Source: Enterococcus phage nattely. From it: a stretch of DNA of 64,000 bases. The notes beneath the pieces were generated by a model. It was not told where the DNA came from. It searched no databases and saw nothing but the letters and a program-made list of their open reading frames with translations. Position numbers and translations under genes: made by a program. The number at the start of each line of letters is the position of its first letter. The stretch's first letter is position 1. Shown here piece after piece: positions 330 to 35,045 of the stretch. Where the stretch lies: the sequence record MT119360.1, one strand, 5' to 3'.

Positions 330-1000
330 ACAATAATATGTACTATTATGCTGTATATGTACACTATATAATGTACGTATAATGTACACCCTGAGTACAC
401 ATATAATATATATTATATATTTTGTGGTGCATATATGCTGTTATTATATAGCTGATATGCAATATATATAAATGATGTGTACACATTATGTACATTATAG
501 TGATGCAATATTATAATACAACAATATACTAACTTTATATATGATATATAATCTATATACGTGCTATATGGTATAATGGTATACAGCAATATATTTTACC
601 TGATATATATGGCATGTAATATACGGCTATCTATATACGGGTATATACGTGGATATATAGGTACTCTATGGTGTATATGTGCCTATCCTTATAGACGATA
701 TATGGTATATATAATAAGAGGATTATGACCGACTCCATGGAGTAGATAACAGATATTTATTGCATACATTTTTGCGAAGCAAAATGTATGCTCCTTACGT
801 TTTGCGAAGCAAAAACGTAAGGATTGGTAACTGCTTACTATTCTTCTTAAATATACAAATTCCTCTTATTCTAATATAAAATATCAAATAGTCTAATATA
901 TATAATATCTCCCTCTTTGATGTTTACACTTCCATGGTGTATAGTGTAAAATATCAAATATACTAATCTATATATATAGGATTCGGTGTTTTTGTGATTT
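330..1000. repeat. About 670-bp extremely AT-rich non-coding region of degenerate TATA/GTACAC repeats; candidate origin or packaging region
   Basis: No credible ORF. Dense tatata, (a)tgtacac and tataat-like reiterations. Also a near-direct repeat AAAATATCAAATA..CTAAT..TATATAT at about 877-905 and 948-978. Confidence 0.45.
770..830. promoter_or_regulatory. Nested hairpin/palindrome (TTTTGC-GAA-GCAAAA twice, embedded in a 13-bp stem CCTTACGTTTTGC/GCAAAAACGTAAGG)
   Basis: Inverted repeats read directly in tttttgcgaagcaaaatgtatgctccttacgttttgcgaagcaaaaacgtaagg. Confidence 0.4.
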
Positions 1001-1005
1001 TACAG

Positions 1006-1034
1006 TTTACAGTTGACAGTCAGTATGATATAAT
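1006..1034 (+). promoter_or_regulatory. Sigma-A-type promoter: TTTACA(1006-1011)-N17-TGaTATAAT(1029-1034)
   Basis: Consensus -35 and extended -10 with 17-nt spacer upstream of the first gene. RBS GAGGAG at about 1052. Confidence 0.6.
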
Positions 1035-1067
1035 ATAATTATCTTAAATATGAGGAGATGAGCTGAA

Positions 1068-1274
1068 TTGGAATTAGTTAAAGGACGTTTTAAAGTTGGA
1101 GACAGATTTAGACACATTCGTTATGGAAACTTGAATGTATTAAAAATTATAGAAGTCAGAGAATATGAGAGACATTTGCCAAACTATAGAGTGATTAGTG
1201 AAAATAATGGCTATAAATATTTGATTAGTGAAGATGAGTTAGTGAAATATCCAATTATTAGAAACGAGGAATAA
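1068..1274 (+). CDS. Hypothetical small protein (TTG start)
   Basis: ORF follows the promoter and a GAGGAG RBS. It may belong to the small beta-rich K-x-G-D-x-V family seen in several small ORFs here. Confidence 0.4.
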   Translation: MELVKGRFKVGDRFRHIRYGNLNVLKIIEVREYERHLPNYRVISENNGYKYLISEDELVKYPIIRNEE

Positions 1275-1277
1275 ATT

Positions 1278-2876
1278 GTGAAAAAGAATACAAAGGGAGA
1301 AATTGACTTACATTTAATTTTAGGTCAAGCTGGAAGTGGAAAGAGTAGTAAACTATTTAATATGATTGAAACTGAGATGAACGAAGGTAAAATGAGACCG
1401 ATTATCTTATGTAACAAATGGTTATTAGTTCGTTCAACTGAAAAGAAAGTTAGTAAGTTAAATGTCAACCATAATGTTCGTGTGCAAACAGTTCAATCAA
1501 TTACTGAACGAACGATTAATGTGCAGAATCAATTAGCTGGAATTGATACAATTATTTTAGATGAATTTAGTCAAATCGATTATAACACGTTGCTTTCATT
1601 AACAGATGCTTGTAAAAAAGTTGGAATTACAAGAATCGTTGCAGCAGGTGACTTCTTACAAAATGAACCGATTAAAGGTGGAAGTTATAGTCCAATGCGA
1701 TTAATTATTCGTCAATTCTTATTAGGAATTACGTCAAACTTCTTCGCTTCATTGAACTTTTATCCGATTTACGAGTGGCTAAAAGATCAATCACAATATA
1801 ACCATGGAGTGTTGGAAGTTCCTAAGGATTTGCGCACTATGCTAAAATCAATTACTTATGAAGCGCTTTTGGACAATTGGAGACAAAATGGTAAAGTAAC
1901 TATTCGTAATAGTCAAGATATGCGACAATTGTTAGCTGATAATTTATATCTATTTCAATATGATGGTGAATATAAAGATAAATTGAAAAAAGCTATTATG
2001 CGAAAAGATTGGCAGATTATAGTTGCAGATTGGAAGCAAATGGCTGTTGTTAATAAATTTGCGTATGATAATGGTTTAAATGGATGTCAAACTGATTATT
2101 ATATCGACATTCGTGGTTATCAAGATGAAAATTATCGCAACTATTATAAATTGACACAAAAAGGATATAGATTAATTAATGGTCGTGATGATTCAATTAA
2201 AGACGATTTTGAACTGATGCAATGTATTCGTCCGACATTTGCAATTATTGCTGATAGTGCACAAGGATTAGAATTTGACAACGTTATGCTTGTTTCATTA
2301 TTAGATGAAAGTGTAAATAAAGGAAGCAAATATAAAAGTTGGTCAAACTTTTCATTCAACTCATTATATATGGCAATGACTAGACACAAGATTGAAGTTG
2401 ACTTATGTGTTGATGAACATGGATGGAAAGATATGAATCGAACATTAGACATTGTGCCTTATGCGAAAAAAGATATGATTGAAGAAGAGTGGTTACATTA
2501 TTGTGCTCGTGTAAATATGCCAGCATTTGAAGCGTTAGAAATGTATAAGAACAAAAGTCACTATTTTGTGAACAATGGATATTTTGTTTCAAATATCGGT
2601 AATACTGTTGTCCGGTTCGCAAAAGGTACTAAAACGTTTGATATTGGATTAAAACCAGATTATACTCTTTTAAAATTATGGAAACAATATCACCCTAACA
2701 TTATTGATGAAAATGTTGAAAAAACATTGAAAAAAAGTAAAACAAACAATAGTAACACTGTTATTTTAGATTGGATTAATGAAATTGGTAAAGAAAATAT
2801 TGATATGAGTTTATCAGTTCGTAAATTCAAAGCAAAATATGGAAAAACAAAAAGTCAAGTTGAAAAATATTTATAA
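1278..2876 (+). CDS. SF1B DNA helicase (Pif1/Dda/RecD-like P-loop ATPase)
   Basis: Walker A GQAGSGKSS, Walker B IILDEFSQ, and motif III AAGDFLQNEPI (GDFxQLPPV-like). GTG start after RBS GAGGAA. Confidence 0.65.
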   Translation: MKKNTKGEIDLHLILGQAGSGKSSKLFNMIETEMNEGKMRPIILCNKWLLVRSTEKKVSKLNVNHNVRVQTVQSITERTINVQNQLAGIDTIILDEFSQIDYNTLLSLTDACKKVGITRIVAAGDFLQNEPIKGGSYSPMRLIIRQFLLGITSNFFASLNFYPIYEWLKDQSQYNHGVLEVPKDLRTMLKSITYEALLDNWRQNGKVTIRNSQDMRQLLADNLYLFQYDGEYKDKLKKAIMRKDWQIIVADWKQMAVVNKFAYDNGLNGCQTDYYIDIRGYQDENYRNYYKLTQKGYRLINGRDDSIKDDFELMQCIRPTFAIIADSAQGLEFDNVMLVSLLDESVNKGSKYKSWSNFSFNSLYMAMTRHKIEVDLCVDEHGWKDMNRTLDIVPYAKKDMIEEEWLHYCARVNMPAFEALEMYKNKSHYFVNNGYFVSNIGNTVVRFAKGTKTFDIGLKPDYTLLKLWKQYHPNIIDENVEKTLKKSKTNNSNTVILDWINEIGKENIDMSLSVRKFKAKYGKTKSQVEKYL

Positions 2877-2961: not shown

Positions 2962-4926
2962 ATGGACTTTAAAAGATATAATGAAAGAGAGGCAAAGCAG
3001 TATACAGCACACTTGTGTTACCAGTTAGGAATTGTTTACAACATTGCTAAACTGATTGCAGAAGATGAACCAACATTTACTGCATTGAACAAAGCTTATA
3101 AAAACAAAGATGACGAATCATATGATAAGGCATTCAATTTATTAAAACAAATACAAGGTGTTGGACCAAAACGTGCAGCTTTATATTTAGAAAAATATTA
3201 TGAAAATCCATATCGTTCTATCAACTGGGAAATGTTTAATATTTTACAAAAATATCAAAAAGTTACTGGTTGGTCAGATAATCGATTATATGATTTAGCT
3301 CGTCGTATTGATGATCCTTCAAAAATTTGGGACACATTTTTATATGATAGTTCAATCACATTGCCAATTGCTATCGAAATTTATAAAATGACAACTGAAG
3401 ATGATGTTTATTTACAAAACCAAACTATTGAATATTTTTCAAATTTCGTTAAGTTACGCGAAATTCAAAATGGACAAAATCGTCTTACAGTACAGAAATT
3501 CAATATTAACAAAGAATTAAATGAGAAATATGACGTTTTCTTAGAAGTGAAAGATTCAGTTATGTTGAAAAATACCGCTATGGATTATGTTACAATTCTC
3601 AAATATTTTAATGAAAATAAAGATAGTGAATTAATCTTTGAATTAAATGAGGATATTGATGTATCAGATTTTGGATCGGATCAGTTGGTTGCATTTGAGA
3701 AATTAAGATGTAAAAAGACAATGATGTTGACTGGTTTTGCTGGAACGGGTAAAACCTACATGTTAGACAAATATATCAAAAATTTAATTGGCGCGAAGGT
3801 TTACGCTTGTGCACTCGCGGGTAAAGCTGTTAAAAACTTTGTGAATGCAATGAGTCCAGATAGTATGAGAAAAGTTACACAATCCACGGTGGCTGGACTT
3901 CGATATGTTCCAAAGTATCAAAGTGAATTACATGATTCGACTATTGTCATTGTTGATGAAGTCTCCATGGTGTCTATGTCTGATTTAGCATTTATCATTA
4001 GAAACTTAGACGATGAACAAAAGCTCATTTTAATTGGAGATATTAATCAGTTACCAGCTATTGAGTTGGATGTTATGAATTGGTTAGTAAATGATGGAGA
4101 AATTGAATTAGTTACTTTAGACATTCCAAAACGTCAAAGTGCAGATTCCGGAATTTTTAAAGACAGTATGTCTATTATTCGTAAAGAAGTTCCTGATTTT
4201 AACACAGAAGATAGTCAAGTTAGAATTGGTGCAACAACAGTTCAAAAAATTATTTATGAAAATCGTGATGCAGACATTTTTCTAACAACAACGAATCAAG
4301 TGAAGGATATTATTAATGAAGTCAAATCCAATGAGGTTCGTCAAATTCCAAATCATTCCGTATTTAAAAATAAATTATATAAACAAGAAGTCGAATTCCA
4401 CGAAGGTTATCAAATTATGATTGGTAAAAACAATGTTGACACTGGTTTAATGAATGGTGATATTTTTGTTATTAATTACGAAGGACATTTAACCGATCCT
4501 TATACAGGAGAAATCGCAAGAGATTTAGATGGAAAACCTCTTAAAATAGGAGAAAATCGTGATTATGTTGATGCTGGCTTTGGTGGAAAAAGTAATATTA
4601 TCGACACCACGGCACATAACGTTCAAATGGCATTTGCTATTACGACACATAAGAGCCAAGGTTCGACTATGATGAAAGGTGTCACTGTTATGGGTAAAGG
4701 TCCATTAGCTAATCGTAATTTATTATATACAGCTTTAACACGTTTTAAAGAAAAACATGTGTTATACTTACCAGATGAAACTTTATTAGATACAATTTTA
4801 AATACTGATGTAAAATATGAAAAATTATCTAAAGAAGACCAACAATTTTTAACTGAAATTGTTGAATTAGAAAAAAAGAAAGAGGTAGGTACTAATGGTG
4901 CAAATGATACAGCAGAAATTTTTTAA
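2962..4926 (+). CDS. recD: RecD2-like ATP-dependent DNA helicase (SF1B)
   Basis: GFAGTGKTY Walker A, VIVDEVSM Walker B, GDINQLPAI, TTHKSQGST and ALTRFK motifs. N-terminal QGVGPKRAALYL HhH-like segment. Confidence 0.85.
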   Translation: MDFKRYNEREAKQYTAHLCYQLGIVYNIAKLIAEDEPTFTALNKAYKNKDDESYDKAFNLLKQIQGVGPKRAALYLEKYYENPYRSINWEMFNILQKYQKVTGWSDNRLYDLARRIDDPSKIWDTFLYDSSITLPIAIEIYKMTTEDDVYLQNQTIEYFSNFVKLREIQNGQNRLTVQKFNINKELNEKYDVFLEVKDSVMLKNTAMDYVTILKYFNENKDSELIFELNEDIDVSDFGSDQLVAFEKLRCKKTMMLTGFAGTGKTYMLDKYIKNLIGAKVYACALAGKAVKNFVNAMSPDSMRKVTQSTVAGLRYVPKYQSELHDSTIVIVDEVSMVSMSDLAFIIRNLDDEQKLILIGDINQLPAIELDVMNWLVNDGEIELVTLDIPKRQSADSGIFKDSMSIIRKEVPDFNTEDSQVRIGATTVQKIIYENRDADIFLTTTNQVKDIINEVKSNEVRQIPNHSVFKNKLYKQEVEFHEGYQIMIGKNNVDTGLMNGDIFVINYEGHLTDPYTGEIARDLDGKPLKIGENRDYVDAGFGGKSNIIDTTAHNVQMAFAITTHKSQGSTMMKGVTVMGKGPLANRNLLYTALTRFKEKHVLYLPDETLLDTILNTDVKYEKLSKEDQQFLTEIVELEKKKEVGTNGANDTAEIF

Positions 4927-4936
4927 AGGTCAGACC

Positions 4937-5431
4937 ATGGAGGTAGTTGGTGCTCTCAATGACGAAAATTATAACATTTATCTTTTACACATGGGAGATT
5001 TTTGTCAAATTGTAGAAGAATTAGAATATGATAAATATTTAGTGCAATTTGAAAATGGTAAAAAATATGTTTTACGTGGAAAATGTTTATCACCAAGTTC
5101 ATTTCCTTTTATTGATAAATCAACAATTATCATAGCTAATAATATAGGAGATTTTAACAACGTTAAATATGACGCAGATAAAAAAGCTTTCTGTTTTGAA
5201 TTAAAACATTTAGTGGATATTGTTTACTCCACGAAGGATATTCAGAAATTACGTTCAGTCGGATATACTAATTTTTCTACAGTGATCAATGAGAAAATAT
5301 TTGAAATTTGTAGACAGCATGGATTAGAAAATGCCACCATGGAGGAAGCAGCAGAACTCTTTAGTTATTTTATGAAAAAAGATTATGATCGTGCTATTGA
5401 GAAATATGGTGAACTCCATGGAATTCGATAA
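4937..5431 (+). CDS. Hypothetical protein
   Basis: ORF. ATG at 4937 chosen (RBS AAAGG just after the upstream stop) rather than the overlapping 4895 start. Confidence 0.4.
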   Translation: MEVVGALNDENYNIYLLHMGDFCQIVEELEYDKYLVQFENGKKYVLRGKCLSPSSFPFIDKSTIIIANNIGDFNNVKYDADKKAFCFELKHLVDIVYSTKDIQKLRSVGYTNFSTVINEKIFEICRQHGLENATMEEAAELFSYFMKKDYDRAIEKYGELHGIR

Positions 5432-6616: not shown

Positions 6617-6870
6617 TGAAAAACATTAAAGCTGGAGATATGGTTCGTGTTATAAAAATAACAGATTTTGACATAGAAAGAGGAATTGAACTTGATATGT
6701 TATTAGTTGTTGAAGATAATTCAACAAAAGATTTACGAGGACTTTTTGTTCAAAATCCATTTGACCCACGATTTAAAGGTGTTCCAACAATTAACTACAT
6801 GTTTGAAGATCAAATTGAGTTAGCAATTTCAAAAAGAGATGAAAATGATTTTAAAGAAGGAGTTAAATAA
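6616..6870 (+). CDS. Hypothetical small protein
   Basis: ORF with RBS AAGGAG. N-terminal KAGDMVRV motif. Confidence 0.5.
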   Translation: MKNIKAGDMVRVIKITDFDIERGIELDMLLVVEDNSTKDLRGLFVQNPFDPRFKGVPTINYMFEDQIELAISKRDENDFKEGVK

Positions 6871-6872
6871 CC

Positions 6873-7106
6873 ATGGATATAATGACAAAAATGGCAGAAG
6901 AAAAAGCTAAACAAATTGAAGAACAATGCTTTATGGATGAAGCACAATATTTAATTAAATTATATTTAGATACTGTTAAAGATAGAGAAGAACAAAAAAT
7001 AAAAATTGCAAAATTAGAAAAAGAACTTAGTGATGAAAAACTAAAATTTGATAAATTAAATAACAAAACCCAAGAAATTTTTAGAAAAGTTAAAGATAAA
7101 TTATAA
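6873..7106 (+). CDS. Hypothetical coiled-coil protein
   Basis: ORF with RBS AAGGAG. Confidence 0.5.
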   Translation: MDIMTKMAEEKAKQIEEQCFMDEAQYLIKLYLDTVKDREEQKIKIAKLEKELSDEKLKFDKLNNKTQEIFRKVKDKL

Positions 7107-7137
7107 AATATTATAAAACGAAAAGAGGAAATTATTA

Positions 7138-8424
7138 ATGGAATGGTTTGAAATTTTAGAAGAAGTAAGTTTGGCAAAAGGTAAAGAAAAGATTGAAATA
7201 TTAAAAGAGCATAAAGATAATACGACTCTACCTGTTATTTTAAACTTTTTATATAATCCACGCATTGTAACTGGTATTAGCAAAAAGAAAATGGGTAAAG
7301 AATTAGATTCCATACAAATTGTAAATTTCCATGGAGTAACTAATAGAGTAATTTCAATTATTGAATATTTAACTGAAAATAACACAGGAAAAGATCAAGA
7401 TATTATACGTGTAAAATCATTAATTGAAACAACAGATGATATGAAAGAACGTCAATTTTTGGAATCTTTAGTTGTTAAAGATATGCCAATTGGAATTAGT
7501 GCAAATTCAGTTAACAAAGTATGGCCAAAATTAATTCCAACTTTCAAGTTACAAAAAGGACAATTATTTGAAGGTAAATTTGATGGTCCACAATTAGTAT
7601 CATTAAAATTAGATGGAAATAGTGCAACAGTCTTCAATTTAGAAGAGAAAACTTATATGCTCTCAAGAAGTGGTGCGATTATGGAAGGTTTTGACCATAT
7701 TCTCAATTATTATCGTCGTATTTTGCCTTTCGGATATGTTTATCAAGGTGAATTAATTGCTAAAAATTATAACAATTTAGACCATGGAGAATTATTCCGT
7801 TATTCAAATGGTATTACAAATAGTAAGAAAAATGATGAAAAGACAATGTTGCAACATGTTGTATTTGATGTAATTCCAATTGAGGACTTTGAAAAAGGAA
7901 AGAGTGACATGGTTTATGTTGATAGAATCTCAATTGCGCAGTCTTGCGTTGAGGAATATCAACCTTACGGAGAAACGTATAAAAACGTCTGTGTTGTGCC
8001 TTTCTATTCTCATACGACAAAAATTGAAAATATTATGAATTTAGCAAATGAAGTGATTAAAGATGGATTAGAAGGTTTGATGATTTGTACGTCAGATTCC
8101 AAATATAAAGTTGGTAAACAAAAGTGGCTGCAAAAAGTTAAAGAGTTTAACACAATGGACTTAGAAGTTATTGACATAAAAGAGCACGTTCGTGGTGGGA
8201 AAGTTGGAGCTCTTATTGTAAATTATAAAAATAATGAAATCGGTGTTGGCGGAATTACTGATGAATTAAGAGAAAAATGGTGGAATAATCCGAATGAAAT
8301 CATTGGTAAGATTATTGAAGTAAAATATTTCCGCTCCACGACGGATAAACATGGAAAAGAATCACTCCGTTTTCCTACTTTCGTCCGTGTACGTGAAGAT
8401 AAATTTGAAGAAAGTTTTGACTAA
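7138..8424 (+). CDS. lig: ATP-dependent DNA ligase
   Basis: Motif I KxDG (SLKLDGNSAT), LEGLMIC adenylation-domain motif, C-terminal OB-like region. RBS AAGAGGAA. Confidence 0.8.
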   Translation: MEWFEILEEVSLAKGKEKIEILKEHKDNTTLPVILNFLYNPRIVTGISKKKMGKELDSIQIVNFHGVTNRVISIIEYLTENNTGKDQDIIRVKSLIETTDDMKERQFLESLVVKDMPIGISANSVNKVWPKLIPTFKLQKGQLFEGKFDGPQLVSLKLDGNSATVFNLEEKTYMLSRSGAIMEGFDHILNYYRRILPFGYVYQGELIAKNYNNLDHGELFRYSNGITNSKKNDEKTMLQHVVFDVIPIEDFEKGKSDMVYVDRISIAQSCVEEYQPYGETYKNVCVVPFYSHTTKIENIMNLANEVIKDGLEGLMICTSDSKYKVGKQKWLQKVKEFNTMDLEVIDIKEHVRGGKVGALIVNYKNNEIGVGGITDELREKWWNNPNEIIGKIIEVKYFRSTTDKHGKESLRFPTFVRVREDKFEESFD

Positions 8425-9558: not shown

Positions 9559-9952
9559 GGAAAATGATATTTTAATGTCTATTGAAAATAGTCAGAAATA
9601 TATTGTCGCAAAAGCTCCAGATGATGATAATAAATTTTATAAATTAATTCCTTTTAATAGTCGATCTGATTTGAGCAATAAAGAGATTATGCGTTCACAA
9701 TTGAAGATCATTGTTTTACCTAGAGTAGTCCATGGAGAAATGATCATGATTGGTAAAAATGATGATTATTGTCGTATCATTCCGGATCCTCTTAAAGTAA
9801 TTAATGAAAATGGTAAATTCATTCAATTGTCTGTAGATAGAGAAGTCCATGGAAAAATCGAAATAAAAATTGGAAAAGAACGTATCCATTTAGACGAAAA
9901 AGAACTCAATGATTTAATTGATGAAATTGAGGAAATAAAAAAATATCTATAA
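9542..9952 (+). CDS. Hypothetical protein
   Basis: ORF with RBS GGAGATAAAAG. Confidence 0.5.
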   Translation: MKNWYEENDILMSIENSQKYIVAKAPDDDNKFYKLIPFNSRSDLSNKEIMRSQLKIIVLPRVVHGEMIMIGKNDDYCRIIPDPLKVINENGKFIQLSVDREVHGKIEIKIGKERIHLDEKELNDLIDEIEEIKKYL

Positions 9953-9973
9953 AAAGTATTTTAATAAAATAGA

Positions 9974-10010
9974 CCATGGAGTTTACAAATATCCTCAAAT
10001 TTGATATAAT
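9974..10010 (+). promoter_or_regulatory. Promoter with CCATGGAG abutting the -35: CCATGGAG-TTTACA(9982-9987)-N17-TATAAT(10005-10010)
   Basis: Read directly. Same arrangement as at 11434-11472. Confidence 0.55.
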
Positions 10011-10048: not shown

Positions 10049-10597
10049 ATGAATGTAGCAGTTTTTATGGGTTCAAGATTTGGAAAAAATAAAATGCACA
10101 AAATTAATGCTAAAAAATTAGGAAAAATTTTAGCATTAAATGATCATATGTTAATTTATGGTGGTTCTGTTTCAGGATTAATGGGAACAGTAGCAAAATC
10201 TGTTAAAAAATATGATGGAAAAGTAACTGGCGTTTATCCAAAAGGCCATTTTGAAGATGAGAAACCACTTTATGATATTGACTTTTTTATTGAAGTTGAC
10301 AATATGGATGATCGTAAGAGAAAATTGATTGATTTAGCGGATGCTTATGTAATTTTACCTGGCGGAACAGGTACACTTGAGGAATTCGCACAATTACTTT
10401 GTGAAATGATGATTAATATAACTCCATGGAGACCAATTTTTATCCTTAATGAAGATGGTTTCTACAATGGATTAGCTTCACAATTATATACTTTTATTCA
10501 CGAAGGCTTTAGTTATGAAAATGAAAAATTAGCTAAAAATATTTTCATTTGTGATACAGTTGATATTTTACAAGAAAAAATTGAGGGATTATCATGA
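10049..10597 (+). CDS. LOG-family protein (nucleotide 5'-monophosphate N-glycosidase/phosphoribohydrolase-like)
   Basis: YGGSVSGLMG ... ILPGGTGTLEE (PGGxGTxxE signature). Confidence 0.65.
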   Translation: MNVAVFMGSRFGKNKMHKINAKKLGKILALNDHMLIYGGSVSGLMGTVAKSVKKYDGKVTGVYPKGHFEDEKPLYDIDFFIEVDNMDDRKRKLIDLADAYVILPGGTGTLEEFAQLLCEMMINITPWRPIFILNEDGFYNGLASQLYTFIHEGFSYENEKLAKNIFICDTVDILQEKIEGLS

Positions 10598-10782
10598 AAC
10601 AAATTTTAAATGATAGAAAAATACATGTTGAAAGATCATTGTCATTTTTAACCAATATCATACAAATTTATAAAAATAAAGATGATAATGAATCAAAAGA
10701 AAAATTTAAAATTGTAAAATCTTTAATTAAATCATATCAAAAAGAATTAAAAGAAATTAATAGAAAACTGGAGGAAGATTAA
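10594..10782 (+). CDS. Hypothetical protein
   Basis: ORF overlapping the upstream stop by 4 nt. Confidence 0.4.
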   Translation: MKQILNDRKIHVERSLSFLTNIIQIYKNKDDNESKEKFKIVKSLIKSYQKELKEINRKLEED

Positions 10783-10783
10783 G

Positions 10784-11433: not shown

Positions 11434-11472
11434 CTCCATGGAGTTTACAAAATTCCATGGAGTTGATATAAT
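11434..11472 (+). promoter_or_regulatory. Promoter with two CCATGGAG copies: CTCCATGGAG-TTTACA(11444-11449)-aaatTCCATGGAGttga-TATAAT(11467-11472)
   Basis: Read directly. One palindrome abuts the -35 and a second lies in the spacer. Confidence 0.55.
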
Positions 11473-14850: not shown

Positions 14851-14879
14851 TTTACAAAACTACTCTTTTTTGATATAAT
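14844..14879 (+). terminator. Fused terminator-promoter unit: AGAGTAG-TTTACAAAA-CTACTCT hairpin (loop is the -35), T-run, then TATAAT at 14874-14879
   Basis: The upstream stop codon sits in the stem. TTTACA is at 14851-14856 and the -10 lies exactly 17 nt downstream. Confidence 0.6.
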
Positions 14880-14909
14880 ATAATTATAAAATTGAAAGGA
14901 AATGGTTTC

Positions 14910-17619: not shown

Positions 17620-17652
17620 TAAATAGACAACACTTCGGTGCTCATGTCGATT

Positions 17653-23645: not shown

Positions 23646-25222
23646 GCACCATGGAGTTAACATTAAATCCGACAAGAGCGATTTATAATTTTTTTGGCTC
23701 TGTAATGAAATCACCGGAAATTTTGAAAGCACCTGAAATTATTTTAGGTGACCGTGATTTTGTTCAATCATTTCATAAAATTGTTTATGCAGCATTGAAT
23801 AACATTATTTTTAGTAATAGAGATAATATTAGTGATATTAGTCCAATTGATGTGGATAATTATCTTGCTAAGTATCCAAACTATTATCGAGTTTGGGAAG
23901 AAAATAATGGTGTTGAATATTTAAATAATGCAAAACAAGTTTCAAACACTCAAATTGCGACAAAAGACTATGAAACAATTAAAAAATTTAGTTTATTAAG
24001 AAACTATGTTGAAAATGGTATTGATGTTTCAGATATTTATGAATATGATAGCAATGATTTAGGAGCATTAACAGAGAGTAATAAAGTATTAGAAAATACA
24101 AGTATCAACGAAATTATTGAACATTTCACACAAAAAGCAATTGAGATTCGAAATGAGTGGAATGTTGATGATGGGAAAGTTAAAGATTTTAAAGCTGGTG
24201 ATGACTTAGATGGACTTTTGGATCGTTTAGTTGAGAACCCAGATTTAGGTTTTCCATTTCAGAACTTAATGTATAATACACTTTTTCGTGGAATGCGCAA
24301 AGAGAAATTTATGTTGAGATCGGGTGCAACGGGTACTGGTAAAACTAGACAAGCAATAAGAGATATGGTATCAATTGCTTGTGATAAAATTTGGGTCACA
24401 GGATTAGGTTGGAAAAGTTTGGGTCCTTCATTTCCAGCATTGTTTATATCAACCGAAATTGAACAAGAAGAATTACAAACAATTATGTTAGCATATTTAA
24501 CTGGAATTCCAGACTCTGATATTAAAAATGGTAACTATGATACGGCAACACGTAAGAGATTAGAAGAGGCAATTGAGATTTTGAAGAAAGCGCCTTTATT
24601 CATGACTTACATTGAGGACTTCTCAATCAGTGATATTGAAATGAAAATTGAAGAGTATATTGTCAAAGAAAACGTACAATATGTTGCATTTGACTATGTT
24701 CAAATGACGCCAAAATTGAGTAAAACAATGAATGATAATTTTGGAACAACTTTGCGTGAAGATCAAATTTTAGTTCATTTTTCGTCAGCATTAAAAGGTA
24801 TTGCTGGTCGTTATGGAATTTTTCTTGAAAGTAGTACACAATTAAATAGAGGTAGTAAAGAAATCGAAAATCGTGATGCATCTTCACTTCGTGGAGGTTT
24901 AGCGACAGCTGATAAGGTCGATTATGGTATTTTAACATTTAAAGTTTCTCAGAAAGAAAAAGATGGATTAAAACATATTTTGCAGCAAGGTTTTGGTGGA
25001 GATATTCAAAAAACACCGGATTTTTCACATTGGGTTTATAAAAATCGTGCTGGTTTAGACCATGTTGTAATTTGGACAAAAATGAATTTGGGAACAATGC
25101 GTGAAGAAGTATTATTTGTAACTGATTATGATTTTAATTTAATTGAGATAAATGGAACTGAAATTGAATTTGAAAGTGTTGATACAATGCCAGAAGAAAT
25201 TGAAAATGTTCCAGTATTTTAG
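23642..25222 (+). CDS. dnaB: DnaB-like replicative DNA helicase
   Basis: About 520 aa, C-terminal RecA-fold with Walker A GATGTGKT and FDYVQM, N-terminal helical domain. 4-nt overlap with the upstream gene. Confidence 0.7.
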   Translation: MSTMELTLNPTRAIYNFFGSVMKSPEILKAPEIILGDRDFVQSFHKIVYAALNNIIFSNRDNISDISPIDVDNYLAKYPNYYRVWEENNGVEYLNNAKQVSNTQIATKDYETIKKFSLLRNYVENGIDVSDIYEYDSNDLGALTESNKVLENTSINEIIEHFTQKAIEIRNEWNVDDGKVKDFKAGDDLDGLLDRLVENPDLGFPFQNLMYNTLFRGMRKEKFMLRSGATGTGKTRQAIRDMVSIACDKIWVTGLGWKSLGPSFPALFISTEIEQEELQTIMLAYLTGIPDSDIKNGNYDTATRKRLEEAIEILKKAPLFMTYIEDFSISDIEMKIEEYIVKENVQYVAFDYVQMTPKLSKTMNDNFGTTLREDQILVHFSSALKGIAGRYGIFLESSTQLNRGSKEIENRDASSLRGGLATADKVDYGILTFKVSQKEKDGLKHILQQGFGGDIQKTPDFSHWVYKNRAGLDHVVIWTKMNLGTMREEVLFVTDYDFNLIEINGTEIEFESVDTMPEEIENVPVF

Positions 25223-25233
25223 AGGTGAAATAA

Positions 25234-26283
25234 GTGGACGCTAAAAAAGTTGTAGAAATGTTAAATGATCGAGACATATTTGATCTTCTTGAGGAATTGG
25301 GTGGACAACCAATCGAAAGAGGAAATACAATTGATGCGTTGACAATTTGCCATGGTGGACATAAACATAAATTGACTTATTATAAAGAAAGTAAATCATT
25401 TCAATGTTGGACAAATTGCGGCCATATGTCAATTTTTGATATGGTCGCAAAAGTTATTGATGGTGAATTTATAGATGCTTTAAGATTTATAGTAAAAAAA
25501 TATAATTTACATGATAATGATTATCAAATTGGTTTTACATTTGAAAAAGTAGAAGATCCTGGTAAAAAATTATTAGAAAAAATGAAAGGAGTAGAAATGC
25601 CAACTTTCATGAAATTAAATTCTGATATTTTAAAAGATTTTTATCCATTTTATCACCAACTTTGGATAAATGATGGAATTTCTATAGAATCAATGAAAAA
25701 ATATAAAATTAAATATTCCATTGAGAATAATCAAATAATCATTCCACACTTTGATAAAAATGGAAATTTAATTGGAGTTCGAGCACGTAATTTGAATAAA
25801 AAAGAAATTGATGAAGGTAAAAAATATATGCCGATATTCCACGACGGAAAAGTTCTAAAACATATGACTGGAGCTAATTTGTATGGTCTTTATGAAAACA
25901 GAGAAAATATTGAAAAAGATAAAAAATTAATATTATTCGAATCAGAAAAAAGCGTTTTGCAATTAAATAGTATGTTGCCTGAGCATTCAATAGGTGTGTG
26001 TGTTTCTGGATCGTCATTAACACAATATCAACTTGAATTAATTAAGGAACTTAATATAGATGAAGTAATTATTGGTGTTGATAAAGAATTCAGTGAAGTT
26101 GGAACTGAAAAAGAGAAATTGTATGCTGAAAAAATATTAAGAGTTTTTAAGAGAAAATTAGCACCATATGTAAGAGTGTCAGTTTTATGGGATTTGGAAA
26201 ACGACATTGAGGAAAAAGATAGTCCAACGGATAAAGGAAAAGAAATATTTTTAAAATTATTTAAAAATAGAATATATATTTAG
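25234..26283 (+). CDS. dnaG: DnaG-like DNA primase (zinc-binding domain plus TOPRIM)
   Basis: CHGGHKHKLTYYKESKSFQCWTNCG zinc ribbon. TOPRIM residues ILFESEKS and IIGVDKEF. GTG start after RBS AGAGGTGA. Confidence 0.65.
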   Translation: MDAKKVVEMLNDRDIFDLLEELGGQPIERGNTIDALTICHGGHKHKLTYYKESKSFQCWTNCGHMSIFDMVAKVIDGEFIDALRFIVKKYNLHDNDYQIGFTFEKVEDPGKKLLEKMKGVEMPTFMKLNSDILKDFYPFYHQLWINDGISIESMKKYKIKYSIENNQIIIPHFDKNGNLIGVRARNLNKKEIDEGKKYMPIFHDGKVLKHMTGANLYGLYENRENIEKDKKLILFESEKSVLQLNSMLPEHSIGVCVSGSSLTQYQLELIKELNIDEVIIGVDKEFSEVGTEKEKLYAEKILRVFKRKLAPYVRVSVLWDLENDIEEKDSPTDKGKEIFLKLFKNRIYI

Positions 26284-26293: not shown

Positions 26294-28120
26294 ATGGAAT
26301 TCACAGAGAAAAATTTGTTTAACCCAGGAAAAAATTCGTTTGTTAAGGATGTATTAGAACAAAATGGAGTTAATCCAGAAATGTTTTTAAATGGAAAAAA
26401 TTATGAAGATGAAATCGTAAGTCGTCCAAATTTGTATTTTAACATGTTTAAAGCTGTAAATTTAGTTAATAAACATGTGGCAACTAATTCTTCAATTGGA
26501 ATTTTAGTTGATGATGATGCTGATGGAATGACTTCAGCTTCTGCCATGGCGCGCGTGTTATTTAAGATGGGTCACCATGGAGCTAAATTCATTTTACACG
26601 ATGAGAAAGGACATGGACTCCATGGAGAAGTTGAAAAAATCATTGAACAGAAAATTGATTTTTTAATTGTGCCAGACGCGGGCTCAAATGATTTTGAAGA
26701 TCAAAAATCTGTGTTAGAAGCTGGGATCGACTTATTAATTCTTGATCACCATGATATGGATAATGAAAGACCAATTTTAGAATTGGAAGCATTATATGAT
26801 GGTTATGTATTAGTAAATAATCAATTATCTTATAATATCAAAGGTGTTAATAAAAATTTAGTTGGTGCAGGAATGGTGTATAAATTTGCACAAGCCGCTG
26901 ATGAAGAATTTGAAACAGATAAATTTTCGAAAGATATTGTTGATTTAGTTGCGGTTGGACAAATTGGAGATTCTAGTGACGTGTCCGATCTTGAAGTTCA
27001 ATTAATTGTGCGAGAAGGATTGGATAATTTAAAAAATCCACTATTAGTTGAAGCTTTAAAAAATCGTATTGTAAAAGGTCAAAAAATTGCTCCAATTAAT
27101 ATGTCGTTTGACATTATTCCATATATTAATGCAGTTACGCGTGTTGGTAAAAAAGAAGAGAAAATTGAATTAATAAAAGGATTAATTGGTTTTTGGCCAG
27201 CGGATGAAACTGTAATTATTCAAAAGAGAAGAAAAAATAAATTAACGAAAAAATTCGAAATTCGTGAAGAACCATGGACTCACTATGGAATCTTAATGGA
27301 TAATTTAACAAAAATAAAAGCTCGTCAAAACAAAGAAATTGACAAAGTTCTCAAAAAAATTGAGGATCCTTATAATGAAAACATTGTAATAGCGGCCCTC
27401 AATGAAGATGAGATTGAATATCGGTCCATTACCGGTCTCATTGCTAACAAATTGGTTTCTCAATATAATAAACCGGCTCTTGTATTAATTTCTGAAAATA
27501 ATGGAACGAAATTTAGTGGTTCAGCTCGTGGACATGAAAAAACTGTTTCTTCATTTAGGCAATGGTGTTTAAACACAGAATTATTTGAATTAGCACAAGG
27601 TCACGACAATGCATTTGGTGTTATTATTGATGATTTAAAATTAGAAAAATTAATGGAGAATAGTGCTTTAGAAACTGTAGTAAATGAAGTGACATACGAA
27701 GTTAATAAAATCTATGAAAATGAAACAAACATTGAGGAAATTAAAATGATCAATGATAACGCATGGATTTTTGGTGGCTCCATGGCGGCACCCAAATTCG
27801 GATATAAAAACTTAGTGATTGGACGTAATTGTGTATCACAAAGAGGTTCTGTTGTAACATTCTTCGACCATGGTCTAGAATTTATTATGTATAAACAACC
27901 AGCTGGTTTAGTTGATTCATTTTTAGAAAAAATGGGATTTGAACAAAAATTAGTTGTGAACCTTGTCGGACACGCAAGTAGAAATGAATGGAATGGTAGA
28001 GTAAAAGAACAAGTTGTTTTAGATGATTTTGAAATGATGACATTAGCAGAAAGTGGAATTGAAGATAAGGCACCAACTTTCGATCCTAACTTTGATGACG
28101 ATGGAAATTTAGTTTTTTAA
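26294..28120 (+). CDS. recJ: RecJ-like DHH-family ssDNA exonuclease
   Basis: DHH motifs ILVDDDADGMTS and LILDHHD, plus a DHHA1-like C-terminal region. Confidence 0.55.
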   Translation: MEFTEKNLFNPGKNSFVKDVLEQNGVNPEMFLNGKNYEDEIVSRPNLYFNMFKAVNLVNKHVATNSSIGILVDDDADGMTSASAMARVLFKMGHHGAKFILHDEKGHGLHGEVEKIIEQKIDFLIVPDAGSNDFEDQKSVLEAGIDLLILDHHDMDNERPILELEALYDGYVLVNNQLSYNIKGVNKNLVGAGMVYKFAQAADEEFETDKFSKDIVDLVAVGQIGDSSDVSDLEVQLIVREGLDNLKNPLLVEALKNRIVKGQKIAPINMSFDIIPYINAVTRVGKKEEKIELIKGLIGFWPADETVIIQKRRKNKLTKKFEIREEPWTHYGILMDNLTKIKARQNKEIDKVLKKIEDPYNENIVIAALNEDEIEYRSITGLIANKLVSQYNKPALVLISENNGTKFSGSARGHEKTVSSFRQWCLNTELFELAQGHDNAFGVIIDDLKLEKLMENSALETVVNEVTYEVNKIYENETNIEEIKMINDNAWIFGGSMAAPKFGYKNLVIGRNCVSQRGSVVTFFDHGLEFIMYKQPAGLVDSFLEKMGFEQKLVVNLVGHASRNEWNGRVKEQVVLDDFEMMTLAESGIEDKAPTFDPNFDDDGNLVF

Positions 28121-28837: not shown

Positions 28838-29224
28838 ATGATTGAAAATAATAAAATTGAAGATAGTAAAGTTGAGAAAATAGTAGATTTAATTGAATCA
28901 TTATTAATTGTTAGTGAAATTAATGAAGAAACAGAAGTGTGGATTGAAACACTAACTCCTTCGCATGGACAATGTCACTTACCGGTTACTGGTCTTTCCA
29001 TGGACGGTGAAAATGATCTCTTCTTACTGTTGGATATTGATAAAGACCATGGAGTGAAAGTTCCACAACTGCTTAAACATTTACAAAAATATATTGATGA
29101 GAATGAAGTAGAAGAATTATGGTATTGGAGTGGAATTAACGAACCTTTTACAGTTGATTCATATTATATTATGGAAGATAACACTTTAGTTTTTAGTGAT
29201 TATAATGGTGAACGTGATGAATAG
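28838..29224 (+). CDS. Hypothetical protein
   Basis: ORF with RBS GGAGG. Confidence 0.5.
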   Translation: MIENNKIEDSKVEKIVDLIESLLIVSEINEETEVWIETLTPSHGQCHLPVTGLSMDGENDLFLLLDIDKDHGVKVPQLLKHLQKYIDENEVEELWYWSGINEPFTVDSYYIMEDNTLVFSDYNGERDE

Positions 29225-32422: not shown

Positions 32423-32431
32423 GAGGATTAT

Positions 32432-33490
32432 ATGGAAATTTTATTATTGAATGTCGCAAATAACATTACGGATTTTCGAACAGTATCAAGTGGGGAAACA
32501 GTTTATCTAAAACAAATGTTAGAACAGTTAGGCCATGGAGTTACAATTGCTTCAAATAAGAATGGTGAATATGCGGTTGCATTTGAGGAAATTGAGGATA
32601 TTAACAATTTTGACAAAGTAGTTGTTTTACCTGCTTCACTGAACTTTTTCGGTGGTGTAGAAAACCCGACAATTATTAAAAATTATAAATTATTAGCAAA
32701 ATATAATGGAACTATTAATATTTTGCAAACTGACGCACGTTTGCCATTTAAGCAGTTGTGGCCAGCAATTGAGAAGCGGGGATGGGGATATAAAAAAGAA
32801 GAAGTTTGGATTAATGCCCCAATTAAAGTAATTGCACAATCAAAAAATTTAGATGAAGTTAAAACACAATATGAAAAAGAAATTTTCAATAACATTGAGT
32901 TTACACATTTTCCAATTGAGCGTTATGCTGGCATTGTGGCGCTAATGAATCCAATTGATGAAGTCGAAGAAAAAGAACATGATTTAGTTTATTATGGTTC
33001 ATTCCGTGGAGGCAATCGTGCTGCTAAAATGGCAGAATTTTTATGTGGAAACATTGTAGAAAAATTAGATGTCCACGTATTTGGAACAATTCGAGAAAAA
33101 CAATTAGCTAAAAGTAGCGATGGTCCATTTCCTTCGTTTGGTAAAAAGATGAAAATGAATGAAATTAGACAAGAGGTTAGCAAAAGTTTCTCAACTTTAA
33201 TTATTGGTGAAAAATTTTATAATAATGCAATGTTGACAGTGAGGGTTTGGGAAACATTAAGTAGCGACGCAGTAGTTCTCATTGACAACGATTTTGACTC
33301 TTACCATAATTTATTTCCTAATTCGCCATGGCGGTATGTTGAAAAAGAAGAAGATCTTATCGAAGTAGTAAAATCTCTTAAAGATGATGAAAATAAGAGA
33401 AAATTAGCGATTCAAGAGCAAAAAGAAGTGTTAGAAAAAATGATTGATTCTTCTCAATGGTTAAGAGATTTTGAAAATATTTTAGCTTAA
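32432..33490 (+). CDS. bgt: DNA beta-glucosyltransferase (T4 BGT homologue)
   Basis: Collinear similarity over about 350 aa to T4 beta-glucosyltransferase as recalled: MEILLLNVANNITDFRTVSSGETVYL, NFFGG, DARLPFKQLWP, APIKVIAQSKNLD, EFTHFPIERY, YYGSFRGGNRAAKMAEFL, VFGTIREKQL, LIIGEKFYNNAMLTVRVWETLSSDAVVLIDNDFD. Same length (352 vs 351 aa). Confidence 0.7.
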   Translation: MEILLLNVANNITDFRTVSSGETVYLKQMLEQLGHGVTIASNKNGEYAVAFEEIEDINNFDKVVVLPASLNFFGGVENPTIIKNYKLLAKYNGTINILQTDARLPFKQLWPAIEKRGWGYKKEEVWINAPIKVIAQSKNLDEVKTQYEKEIFNNIEFTHFPIERYAGIVALMNPIDEVEEKEHDLVYYGSFRGGNRAAKMAEFLCGNIVEKLDVHVFGTIREKQLAKSSDGPFPSFGKKMKMNEIRQEVSKSFSTLIIGEKFYNNAMLTVRVWETLSSDAVVLIDNDFDSYHNLFPNSPWRYVEKEEDLIEVVKSLKDDENKRKLAIQEQKEVLEKMIDSSQWLRDFENILA

Positions 33491-33522
33491 CGGTTTACGT
33501 TAAGCTTTTTTTATGATATAAT
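33484..33522 (+). terminator. Fused terminator-promoter unit (AGCTTAACG-gttta-CGTTAAGCT, T-run, TATAAT 33517-33522)
   Basis: Perfect 9-bp stem that includes the upstream stop codon. TTTACg -35 in the loop. 17-nt spacer. Confidence 0.65.
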
Positions 33523-33561
33523 ATAACTATAAATAAATTAGAAAGAAATGGAGAGAAATTT

Positions 33562-34086
33562 ATGACGGTTCAGTTTAAAGCGAAAGGACATGAAGATAAC
33601 ATTATTCACTTATATTCAGATGGTGGTTGTCGGTCAACTGCTAAAAAAGGTGAAACTATAAAAGAAACAGATAAAAGTGCTTATGCATTCTTCTTAAAAC
33701 AAGGTGGAAATGAAAAATTAGATGGGCAAGCAAGTTATGGTAAAACAAATAATAATCAAGAAATTATGGGATTATTAATGGGCTTACGCGCTATTAAACG
33801 CCCAGAATTTCCAGTTGTTGCATATTTAGATTCAGCTTATGTTGTTAACTGTTTACAAGCTGGCTGGTGGAAGAAGTGGAAAGCTAATGGATGGACGAAA
33901 AAAGGTGGATTAGCAAATGCTAAAGAATGGAAAGAATTAATTGAAGAATTAGAACGTTTTCCATTTTTTAGAATTGAAAAAGTTAAAGGACACAGTGGCT
34001 TTGCAGATTATAATGATTTAGTTGATAAACACTTAAATAAATTAATGGATGAATTACCTGAAATTGGAAAGGGAAATGTTTTATGA
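33562..34086 (+). CDS. rnhA: Ribonuclease HI
   Basis: LYSDGGC, EIMGLLMGL, LDSAYVVNCL, W-x-x-WKANGW and VKGHSGFADYNDLVD motifs. Confidence 0.75.
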   Translation: MTVQFKAKGHEDNIIHLYSDGGCRSTAKKGETIKETDKSAYAFFLKQGGNEKLDGQASYGKTNNNQEIMGLLMGLRAIKRPEFPVVAYLDSAYVVNCLQAGWWKKWKANGWTKKGGLANAKEWKELIEELERFPFFRIEKVKGHSGFADYNDLVDKHLNKLMDELPEIGKGNVL

Positions 34087-35045
34087 TATATTATGGAGAG
34101 CCATATTTTGAACTATTTTCATATGAGGCGACTGATAAAGCAAGAAATGACACTTGTAAAATATTAAACTCCATGGGGTATTCACCTTTAAAATTATCTT
34201 GTTTTTCAGACGTGAACATTGAGAAAGCTGATGAAGAATTAGCTAACATTGAGGAAAATGACATAATTCTCTTACAATATCCAACTTACAGTGGAGCAGA
34301 TTATGAAAAGAGATTAATTGAAATTTCTCATAAGAAAAAAGCAAAAATCTGTGCAATTGTTCACGACTTAGAATCAATAAGATTCTATGGAAATGATAGT
34401 GACATTGAGATTTTGAATGGTTTCGATATTATATCTCTTCCCTCCATGGAGATGTATAAAAAACTCTTAAAACAAGGACTAAAAACAAAAGTAAAGATAC
34501 AGTTAATTTGGGATTTTCTCGCCATGGATAATCAACAATGGTATGATACAAATTCGGACATTGTCTTTGCTGGAAATTTAACAATGGAAAAGAGTAAATG
34601 GATAATGGATGTAGATTTTCCTATGTTGGTGTATGGCGACAATATAAATAATTTAATTTTTAATGATGATGTAAAATATTGTGGTAAAAAGAATGATTTG
34701 GAATTAGTAAAAGAAATTGGTGGACAAATTGGATTATTATGGGAAGAAGGATTATATAAAGATTATTTAAAATATAATTTATCGTTTAAGCCTTCTTTAT
34801 ATCTTGCAGCAAATTGTCCGATTATTGTTCCAGAAAAAACCCATATTGGAAATATTGTAAAAACATACAAAATAGGCGTAACTGTTAAAGATATTAAAAG
34901 ACAAACAATGTTGGATGCTGTTATTAAATTAAAAGATAATTTAAACTTTTATCAAGAACGTGTTTCAACATTTGGAGAAACAATTAGAAATGGGCAAAAT
35001 ATGAAAACGTTAGTTGAAAGTATGGTGAGAGAAATTGAAAATTGA
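34083..35045 (+). CDS. Hypothetical protein (320 aa) adjacent to the glucosyltransferase; candidate second sugar-transferase
   Basis: No recognisable motif. Position within the modification module only. Confidence 0.4.
   Translation: MIYYGEPYFELFSYEATDKARNDTCKILNSMGYSPLKLSCFSDVNIEKADEELANIEENDIILLQYPTYSGADYEKRLIEISHKKKAKICAIVHDLESIRFYGNDSDIEILNGFDIISLPSMEMYKKLLKQGLKTKVKIQLIWDFLAMDNQQWYDTNSDIVFAGNLTMEKSKWIMDVDFPMLVYGDNINNLIFNDDVKYCGKKNDLELVKEIGGQIGLLWEEGLYKDYLKYNLSFKPSLYLAANCPIIVPEKTHIGNIVKTYKIGVTVKDIKRQTMLDAVIKLKDNLNFYQERVSTFGETIRNGQNMKTLVESMVREIEN

Follow-up and report, generated by a model that had tools for sequence, protein, structure and literature searches.

The 64,000-nucleotide stretch of Enterococcus phage nattely considered here (sequence record MT119360.1; called the window below) carries dozens of copies of the palindrome CCATGG, almost all of them in the left part of its rightward-transcribed arm. 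The genes of this arm lie on the plus strand up to ca 58.5 kb and serve replication, recombination, nucleotide metabolism and DNA glucosylation; beyond this point lysis and structural genes follow, which run leftward. Among the genes of the left arm are those for helicases, a ligase, nucleotide salvage, a sigma-like factor, a single-stranded DNA-binding protein (SSB), Sak4, DnaB, primase and RecJ, and for hydroxymethylcytosine (hmC) and its glucosylation. We will show that the excess of CCATGG in this arm is real and that the motif is under selection at the DNA level. A tentative interpretation is then weighed, in which the palindromes would be the docking sites of a phage protein.

Megablast searches (9-19 kb) matched the window to Enterococcus siphophages of ca 86 kb and to no others. 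The identity is 98% for vB_EfaS_140 and ca 92% for VPE25, VFW, vipetofem and vB_EfKM29 (genus Vipetofemvirus, subfamily Andrewesvirinae), while phage 9183 (genus Denvervirus) is ca 80% identical in short stretches only. By sequence comparison, the phage is thus a Vipetofemvirus of the VPE25/vB_EfaS_140 group. From about position 1 onward the window aligns colinearly with VPE25; its gene order is also that of phage 9183, with shared proteins that are mostly 50-88% identical. Many VPE25 proteins have their best match among Bacillus subtilis SPbeta-type proteins. The phage is obligately lytic, and the genome of VPE25 and VFW is reported to be circularly permuted and terminally redundant (PMC4999554). 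The DNA of VPE25 and VFW is reported to resist bisulfite conversion, EcoRI and MspI and to be cut by PvuRts1I, which has been interpreted as glucosyl-hmC (PMC4999554); the DNA of phage 140 is likewise resistant to restriction enzymes (PMC7820071). Full-text literature searches found no published account of a CCATGG motif in Enterococcus phages, and a search for over-represented palindromes gave nothing of relevance.

Results

An exact search finds 41 copies of CCATGG in the window, 40 of them at 735-34527 and one at 43851, and none in 43857-64000. Dinucleotide shuffles of the whole window give 5.2 ± 2.1 copies with a maximum of 11, and for positions 1-35000 Markov models of order 0, 2 and 3 predict 1.7, 4.5 and 7.2 copies, respectively. 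The enrichment in the arm is ca 9-fold, and the Poisson probability of at least 40 copies when 4.45 are expected is ca 1e-24. When the hexamers of the arm are ranked, CCATGG comes first with z = 16, the runner-up having 7.5, and it is the only palindrome that is enriched. Under a uniform model, the probability that at most one of the 41 sites falls in the last 28.7 kb is 9e-10.

The excess in the left arm is therefore real. A preliminary description of this DNA, made by eye, had claimed both an over-representation of CCATGG and its confinement to the left arm. The former is borne out by the Markov and shuffle expectations, and the latter turns out to be sharper than claimed once the bases next to the core are scored: at least two matches to the four flanking positions CT..AG are found at 33 arm sites and at 0 sites elsewhere in the window. 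In VPE25, one of the eight sites outside the arm has at least two flank matches and the other seven have 0-1. The coordinates read by eye are right to 0-2 nucleotides, except that 34181 should read 34171. The sites are given below together with the features in which they lie (ORF, open reading frame; a strand is stated where one applies).

735..34527: motif-enriched domain with 40 CCATGG, on the left side of the arm transcribed rightward
733..742: perfect CTCCATGGAG, ahead of the first strong promoter and within the non-coding control region
930..939: TTCCATGGTG, which belongs to the local repeat T(C/A)(C/T)ATGGTGTATA and is found within the spacer of a promoter-like element (TTTACA-18-TAAAAT at 923)
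1800..1809: AACCATGGAG, within ORF 1278-2876
3963..3972: CTCCATGGTG, within a RecD-like helicase ORF
4933..5423: three sites in ORF 4895-5431, at 4935 (GACCATGGAG), 5337 (CACCATGGAG) and 5416 (CTCCATGGAA)
6869..7789: ligase region, with sites at 6871 (AACCATGGAT, on the start codon), 7329 (TTCCATGGAG) and 7782 (GACCATGGAG)
9728..9981: sites 9730, 9847 and 9974, the last being a CCATGGAG that adjoins the -35 element TTTACA of the promoter at 9982
10422..11036: two perfect CTCCATGGAG, at 10424 and 11029
11434..11472, plus strand: promoter TTTACA(11444)-17-TATAAT, which drives the dA/dG kinase and PnuC genes; CTCCATGGAG at 11436 adjoins the -35 element and TTCCATGGAG at 11455 is in the spacer
12524..13092: three sites in the PnuC gene, at 12526, 13006 and 13085
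14713..18550: sites 14715, 16226 (perfect), 17301, 18474 and 18543 (perfect), the last fully conserved though the stretch around it is only 79% identical to VPE25
23647..25357: one site at the start of DnaB (23649) and one in primase (25350)
26542..27875: RecJ-like gene with six sites, at 26544, 26575, 26620 (perfect), 27272, 27780 and 27868
28996..29054: sites 28998 and 29047, 49 bp apart
32531..34529: sites 32533 and 33326 in the beta-glucosyltransferase gene and 34171, 34444 (perfect) and 34522 in the glycosyltransferase-like gene; in the window the domain ends here on its right side
43851..43856: lone outside site TACCATGGTT, with 0 of 4 flank matches and thus of the background type

The unit under selection is CTCCATGGAG, and no information is found past 10 bp. 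At the 40 arm sites, C is present at -2 in 20, T at -1 in 19, A at +6 in 30 and G at +7 in 29 cases. Measured against the background composition this preference is symmetric, with a 4.6-fold enrichment of C at -2 and a 4.1-fold enrichment of G at +7. The half-flanked form CCATGGAG occurs at 22 of the 40 sites, in agreement with the earlier statement that more than half carry the GGAG extension, and CTCCATGG is found 13 times in the window; in VPE25 there are 21 of each. The check for strand or orientation bias that had been suggested was also run: by orientation, the flanks split 22/13 in the window and 21/21 in VPE25, which is symmetric relative to composition, and no polarity is seen from one end of the arm to the other. 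Each flank varies independently of its partner, both being present at 8 sites compared to 7.2 expected. There are exactly eight perfect decamers CTCCATGGAG, where at least eight had been counted by eye, and the variants GACCATGGTC at 27868 and CGCCATGGCG at 33326 are both present.

In contrast to the flanks, where at least two of the four matches are seen at 33 of 40 sites compared to 1.6 expected, the 6-bp core is present in full or not at all. There are 40 exact cores, compared to 4.7 in order-2 Markov simulations, while cores with a single mismatch do not exceed background, and those that combine one mismatch with perfect flanks number 0. A scan of the arm reveals no enrichment of lone half-sites.

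Relative to the starts and stops of genes, the position of the sites is random, and their spacing is roughly Poisson, with a coefficient of variation of 1.16; the largest site-free gaps are 18.5-23.6 kb and 29.0-32.5 kb. Certain spacings are favoured among close pairs, namely 19, 49, 68-69, 78-79, 88 and 127-129 bp. Examples are 5337/5416 and 13006/13085 (both 79 bp apart) and 34444/34522 at 78-79 bp, 18474/18543 at 69, 27780/27868 at 88 and 11436/11455 at 19 bp. The best period of the spacings is ca 9.9 bp, which is marginal after correction for the scan over periods (P ~0.02-0.06).

These properties fit a signal on double-stranded DNA rather than a signal in RNA or in the code. An RNA-level signal, such as a RegB-like GGAG cleavage site, is rejected because the flanks are symmetric and unpolarised while the called genes of the arm share one strand. 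The symmetry of the 10-bp palindrome is also consistent with the dimeric protein suggested in the preliminary description.

A related observation concerns TCCACG/CCACGG, one transition away from the motif, which is also in excess in the arm (1-35300), with 14 copies of TCCACG compared to 2.5 expected and 5 of CCACGG compared to 0.9. Examples are found at 5543, 13152, 10960, 12865 and 31521, and two copies form hairpin stems (CTCCACGTAATYGTGGAG). In VPE25, compensatory changes in the stem of a hairpin 3' of the PnuC gene generate CTCCATGGAG.

We now consider how the motif is distributed among phages. The check in related phages, which had also been proposed, gave the counts below.

VPE25: 56 CCATGG in total, 48 in the first 36 kb
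vB_EfKM29: 56 CCATGG in total, 48 in the first 36 kb
vB_EfaS_140: 40 CCATGG in total, 38 in the first 36 kb
vipetofem (arm segment L007): 24 CCATGG in 21.6 kb
metagenomic vipetofemvirus contig L014: 23 CCATGG in 21.6 kb
phage 9183, whole genome (86 kb): 1 CCATGG compared to 8-12 expected, and none at orthologous positions
third lineage L009: 0 CCATGG in 21.5 kb

The same pattern is thus present in the same arm of the five vipetofemvirus genomes and contigs examined, and in all five the sites are confined to 0.5-35.3 kb. No comparable palindrome is found in L015, L016, Geobacillus GR1, Staphylococcus SEP9 or Lactobacillus 8014-B2 (homologous arms in the case of GR1, SEP9 and 8014-B2). The unrelated E. 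faecalis phages SANTOR1 and LY0322 have 3 and 5 copies of CCATGG compared to 3.5-7.4 expected. Since vB_EfKM29, for which E. faecium is the listed host, has the complete pattern while these unrelated E. faecalis phages are at background, the host species is not the determinant. Within the genus, the left arm is as diverged as the right (identity 0.904 and 0.895), and the same holds for the comparison with 9183. A mosaic origin of the arm is thereby rejected, and the sites have therefore arisen in place in the Vipetofemvirus lineage and were not imported.

It can be mentioned here that phage 9183 is strongly depleted in GAATTC, with 4 copies compared to 33-53 expected. In the homologous arm there is a mild excess of TTGATCAA/TGATCA, with 14 copies in 9183 compared to 3.3-5.6 (1-36 kb) and 7 in L009 compared to 1.8. 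This excess could be a faint counterpart of the CCATGG pattern or an effect of GAT-CAA codons, and beyond this weak excess in 9183 and L009 no alternative palindrome was identified in the sister genus.

Several lines of evidence bear on selection. When the window is compared to VPE25, 35 of the 40 sites retain the complete core, compared to 25.0 ± 3.1 for random hexamers (P = 0.0006), and the core identity is 96.7% compared to 91.9% nearby, the arm as a whole being ca 90% identical. The density of sites is equal in segments of high and low divergence. Among four genomes, 20 site columns are polymorphic. The non-site allele matches phage 9183 where it can be aligned (12526, 11051 and 26641), and these sites are therefore derived. 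At 12526, for example, VPE25 and 9183 share ACATGG, and the site is a gain in the lineage of the window and phage 140. Several gains consist of 2-3 substitutions inside 10 bp that yield the perfect decamer, such as the change from CAAAATGGAG to CTCCATGGAG at VPE25 26254; further gains of this kind are found at VPE25 13081 and 26641.

The coding sequences of the arm are affected as well. Of its 40 sites, 34 lie within ORFs and six are outside any called ORF. The coding regions contain 35 sites, compared to 6.2 after resampling of synonymous codons and 2.9 after shuffling of the codon order, and all three reading frames are used, with 19, 11 and 5 sites, as the preliminary description had said. 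Its argument that the motif is not a coding artefact likewise survived these two controls, and with the Markov and shuffle controls added, an artefact of coding or composition is ruled out. The commonest frame is xxC CAT GGx, which encodes His-Gly. This dipeptide occurs 25 times in the arm proteins compared to 9.6 expected (2.6-fold), while in 35-58.5 kb it occurs 6 times compared to 6.0 expected. The His-Gly excess is a protein-level footprint of the DNA motif, that is, both the codon choice and the amino-acid sequence are bent to host it.

From the conservation of the cores, the gains by multiple substitutions and the distortion of the coding sequence, CCATGG is under both positive and purifying selection at the DNA level, in line with the positive selection that had been suspected. 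No association was found between the sites and recombination or mosaic breakpoints between the genomes, and a recombination hotspot is therefore rejected.

Stereotyped promoters of the form (CTG)TTTACA-N17-(TG)nTATAAT number 32 in the window, between 1006 and 58070, of which 17 are on the left and 15 on the right (for example 13730-13764, 14843-14879, 28130-28168, 33484-33522 and 40881-40919). In many of them, the -35 sequence GTTTACA is in the loop of the preceding terminator hairpin, giving a compact terminator-promoter unit. Two subclasses can be distinguished, 'TGATATAATATAA' and 'AAAAACTGTTTACA...TATAATAAATATATAATAAATAA', the second of which precedes small ORFs. It had been noted by eye that two copies of the motif flank promoter elements, and this is true for 11436/11455 at TTTACA-17-TATAAT, yet only 2 of the 17 left-arm promoters carry sites, those at 9982 and 11444. 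In both cases CCATGGAG adjoins the -35 element (9974 and 11436), and the promoter-proximal sites 9974 and 11436/11455 are conserved in all genomes. The motif is not an element of a special promoter class, because the same promoters occur in both arms, only two have sites, and the placement is random relative to gene starts and stops.

The right boundary of the domain had been placed at the end of the DNA-modification module. The coincidence is approximate: VPE25 has an extra site at 35179, past the glycosyltransferase-like gene and hence beyond the module, and no transcription-unit limit is evident. Statistically, the true boundary may reach as far right as ca 36.7 kb. Between ca 33.5 and 36.67 kb no strong promoter-like match was seen, and a single transcription unit thus seems to run across the right edge of the domain. 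The designation of the region as an early domain is not supported, as the promoters are the same in both arms and the VPE25 expression table has no sharp change near 35 kb. In the published VPE25 transcriptome, genes are grouped into early and late clusters only, and the table is row-scaled and noisy, so that no boundary can be defined from it. It contains a hint that orf30-36 and orf55-62, both poor in the motif, rise later.

The non-coding control region at 240-1000 contains iteron-like repeats, T(C/A)(C/T)ATGGTGTATA and TATATACGGG, and the twin hairpins TACATTTTTGCGAAGCAAAATGTA / TACGTTTTGCGAAGCAAAAACGTA at 765-788 and 796-819. Two CCATGG are present here, and VPE25 has four within 340 bp, three of them spaced by 68-69 bp. 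It could serve as an origin, as a pac region or as an operator region.

Proteins that could read the motif were sought by Pfam and PHROGs scans of ca 60 ORFs, including nearly all of those without a 9183 homolog. The scans revealed no repressor-like domain, most of the small ORFs being without a detectable family, and no Pfam family of the MatP, ParB/Noc or TetR/SlmA kind is present in the scanned set. Neither is there a convincing HU-type protein, the sole match being PF18175 with E = 0.046, which is below the threshold. One further lineage-specific protein can be mentioned, that of ORF 13192-13470 on the plus strand, which has 92 residues, is very acidic (pI ~4.1) and belongs to no detectable family; a similar acidic composition is seen in DNA-mimic anti-restriction proteins.

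Discussion

Starting from the observed anatomy, confinement, lineage specificity and selection of the motif, we infer a protein dimer and an effect of its binding. Our preferred explanation, in which we place somewhat less than even confidence, is that the CTCCATGGAG-type palindromes are docking sites for a Vipetofemvirus-specific homodimeric DNA-binding protein that marks the left arm. Such a protein would read the strict CCATGG core, with the dyad on the A-T step, and make weaker symmetric contacts to 2 bp on each side of it. Some 40-48 copies, about one in every 0.9 kb and irrespective of where genes lie, would decorate the first ca 35 kb of the replication and nucleotide-metabolism arm. 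The sites would mark this arm as a domain, and the benefit would come from bulk occupancy and not from single sites, in analogy to dispersed operators or to the domain-marking sites of bacterial chromosomes. At the promoters 9982 and 11444, the protein might in addition regulate the nucleotide-salvage operons directly. Candidate effects of binding are an arm-wide damping of transcription, or roadblock, and a role in protecting or organising what is probably the first part of the genome to enter the cell. The restriction of the pattern to one lineage is what would be expected of a co-evolving pair of protein and site.

Such an order of entry could arise as follows. In P22 and SPP1, packaging runs in the direction of late-gene transcription. 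If this holds here, the arm would be packaged last and would be the first part to enter the cell, and a first-entering arm would, by this analogy, fit an early role in protection or organisation.

It is important to point out that a number of observations weigh against a dimer that marks the arm. No DNA-binding domain was detected in the lineage-specific proteins by the Pfam and PHROGs scans. ORF 10594-10782 on the plus strand belongs to the operon of the motif-bearing promoter 9982, where it is inserted between the genes for the LOG-like protein and the deoxyribosyltransferase; its product is basic, 62 residues long and found in vipetofemviruses only. It is modelled confidently as a two-helix hairpin (pLDDT 95) with no recognisable DNA-binding fold. 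For ORF 1068-1274, the first gene of the arm and also lineage-specific, the structure model is of low confidence. An all-or-none 6-bp core is commoner in enzymes of the restriction/modification type than in transcription factors, and only 6 of the 40 sites are non-coding, compared to 2.7 expected (P = 0.05). As to the domain, its right edge, at 34.5 kb here and at 35.2 kb in VPE25, has no evident transcription-unit limit, and both arms have promoters of the same class, two points that weaken the idea of a 'marked' arm. Finally, as the DNA is reported to contain glucosyl-hmC (PMC4999554), the reader must tolerate or require up to six sugar-bearing bases in 10 bp.

We now compare the pattern with known systems, and it should be said that for each of the closest ones some defining feature is missing or unverified here. 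The stoperators of the cluster A mycobacteriophages, bound by L5 gp71, and the C1 operators of P1 are dozens of short conserved sites, many of them intragenic or intergenic, that act as an ensemble. They are asymmetric 13-17-mers, oriented with transcription and present genome-wide in temperate phages with a known repressor. The present motif resembles them in its many dispersed copies of one short site away from classical promoters. It differs in being a 10-bp palindrome with symmetric flanks and no orientation bias, and in occupying one arm only of an obligately lytic phage (PMC4999554).

The SPBRE element of SPbeta, a 15-bp motif at ca 10 intergenic promoter regions, is bound by the tyrosine-recombinase-like repressor MrpR (PMC10516654). 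This is of interest as it is also a repeated element, the SPbeta group shares the replication module with this phage, and the window has a tyrosine-recombinase-like gene of its own. The latter, ORF 58884-59861 on the minus strand, has integrase domains, is 100% identical in VPE25 and 86% identical in 9183, is expressed late in VPE25 (orf_105), and belongs to an obligately lytic phage. Unlike SPBRE, however, the present sites are ca 40 mostly intragenic 10-bp palindromes (34 of 40 in ORFs), and only 2 of 17 arm promoters have one. The link to MrpR and SPBRE was rejected on account of this architecture and because ORF 58884-59861 has no MrpR match in a PDB sequence search. As a binder of the MrpR type, this protein is further disfavoured by its 86% identity in 9183, which is without the motif.

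The matS sites of MatP and the sites bound by Noc and SlmA are short palindromes bound by dimers, whose regional presence or absence defines a domain and whose copies act collectively and are weakly selected; they are 12-16 bp long and tolerate degeneracy. The confinement of the present palindromes to one contiguous domain (40 compared to 1, P = 9e-10) is similar. In contrast to these sites, the 6-bp core here is all-or-none, no MatP, ParB/Noc or SlmA homolog is present in the scanned ORFs, and the replicon is an 86-kb phage with glucosyl-hmC DNA. TF1 of the Bacillus phage SPO1, a dimeric HU-type protein that prefers hydroxymethyluracil DNA, has sites concentrated in the early-gene region, which are few and loosely defined. 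The proposed protein would likewise be a phage dimer on hypermodified DNA with regionally clustered sites; unlike in the case of TF1, no convincing HU-type protein is found here.

Another option considered is that the sites are the targets of a sequence-specific enzyme that acts on the phage's own DNA, either a nicking or cleaving endonuclease or a modifying or de-modifying enzyme. We judge this unlikely. The endonuclease could act in recombination-dependent replication or make T5-like nicks, and the modifying or de-modifying enzyme would have restriction-enzyme-like specificity for CCATGG. The hexamer is indeed a classical type II recognition sequence (the NcoI type), and the all-or-none core, with 40 exact copies and one-mismatch copies at background, is reminiscent of type II discrimination. 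The arm moreover encodes RecD-like and RecJ-like proteins, Sak4, SSB and an HNH protein. Compared to the site of an NcoI-type restriction-modification system, on the other hand, CCATGG is enriched ca 9-fold here and not avoided, a depletion being seen only in 9183, and a CT/AG flank preference (33 of 40 compared to 1.6 expected) would be needless for a 6-bp enzyme site. No cognate enzyme gene was found: a methyltransferase or restriction-type nuclease is neither annotated in the records of the relatives nor detected in the scanned ORFs. The HNH protein at 14892-15764, which the preliminary description had put forward as a candidate enzyme, has an HNH-type Cys/His motif, but it also has an evenly diverged, 61%-identical ortholog in the site-free phage 9183. 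Nothing ties it to the motif, and it was rejected. The missing link of the sites to recombination and mosaic breakpoints also speaks against an enzyme, and nicking of a palindrome on both strands would lead to ca 40 breaks in the genome.

A quite improbable account is that of a Chi-like signal. In this scenario, a phage helicase-nuclease, with the two RecD-like proteins from the start of the arm and a RecJ-like exonuclease, would read the sites, attenuate the degradation and promote the recombination of phage DNA that has free ends in or near the arm, for example an unpackaged pac-cut end or a first-entering end. The strict recognition and the density of about one site per kb are properties of Chi. 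Two RecD-like ORFs and a RecJ-like ORF are present, and the flanks are selected independently, as if CCATGGAG on each strand counted alone. The account draws further on ORF 1278-2876 on the plus strand at the head of the arm, which encodes a RecD/SF1-like P-loop protein without a PDB sequence match; at 20% identity to its syntenic counterpart in 9183, it is the most diverged of the shared proteins. However, known Chi sites are asymmetric and polar, while the core here is palindromic, the orientation in VPE25 is 21/21 and no polarity is seen along the arm. In addition, no nuclease domain was detected in the helicase-like proteins, and the connection of the arm to a DNA end is a conjecture that depends on the pac position and the direction of packaging.

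We have also considered that a host (Enterococcus) DNA-binding protein or defence component reads the motif and is recruited or titrated by the phage, which is very improbable at best. The failure to find a phage-encoded binder would be explained, and motif-bearing and motif-free genera have mostly been isolated on different hosts. Against this stand vB_EfKM29, with its full pattern and E. faecium as the listed host, and SANTOR1 and LY0322, which are at background; a host-driven signal was rejected on these grounds, and a host factor would also leave the one-arm confinement unexplained.

Hardly credible, even at its highest, is a non-adaptive origin by biased mutation or repair (of the very-short-patch type) or by mosaicism (a CCATGG-rich ancestor of the left arm or a replaced right part): the gains with 2-3 adjacent substitutions could hint at templated conversion and TCCACG/CCACGG is also in excess, but sites have been created by many different changes (A>C, T>C, T>A, A>G and multi-base), neighbours with one mismatch show no systematic depletion, the cores are conserved above their surroundings, a repair bias would act genome-wide, and the equal divergence of the arms indicates no separate origin.

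Conclusion

As a rule, short palindromes are lost from phage genomes. The present one has instead accumulated to a ca 9-fold excess in one arm only, at a cost in protein sequence, and it is found genus-wide in phages of the VPE25 group, which are studied for therapy. The boldest form of the docking-site explanation is that a lytic glucosyl-hmC phage has evolved genome-domain marking, in which a protein reads a sugar-decorated 10-bp palindrome and treats a 35-kb arm, probably the first to enter the cell, differently from the remaining chromosome. We consider this doubtful. If true, no such domain-organising pair of site and protein would have been described in a phage before, nor a sequence-specific reader for this kind of hypermodified DNA, and the selection behind it would be powerful enough to alter both codons and amino acids in essential replication genes.

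The motif is in any case a precise and testable target. A reader, if one exists, would be a new protein that regulates or organises a hypermodified genome, and it would offer a handle on the early and replication programme of these phages. The finding also calls for caution in recoding and engineering, as changes in the left arm that are taken to be 'silent' may not be silent.

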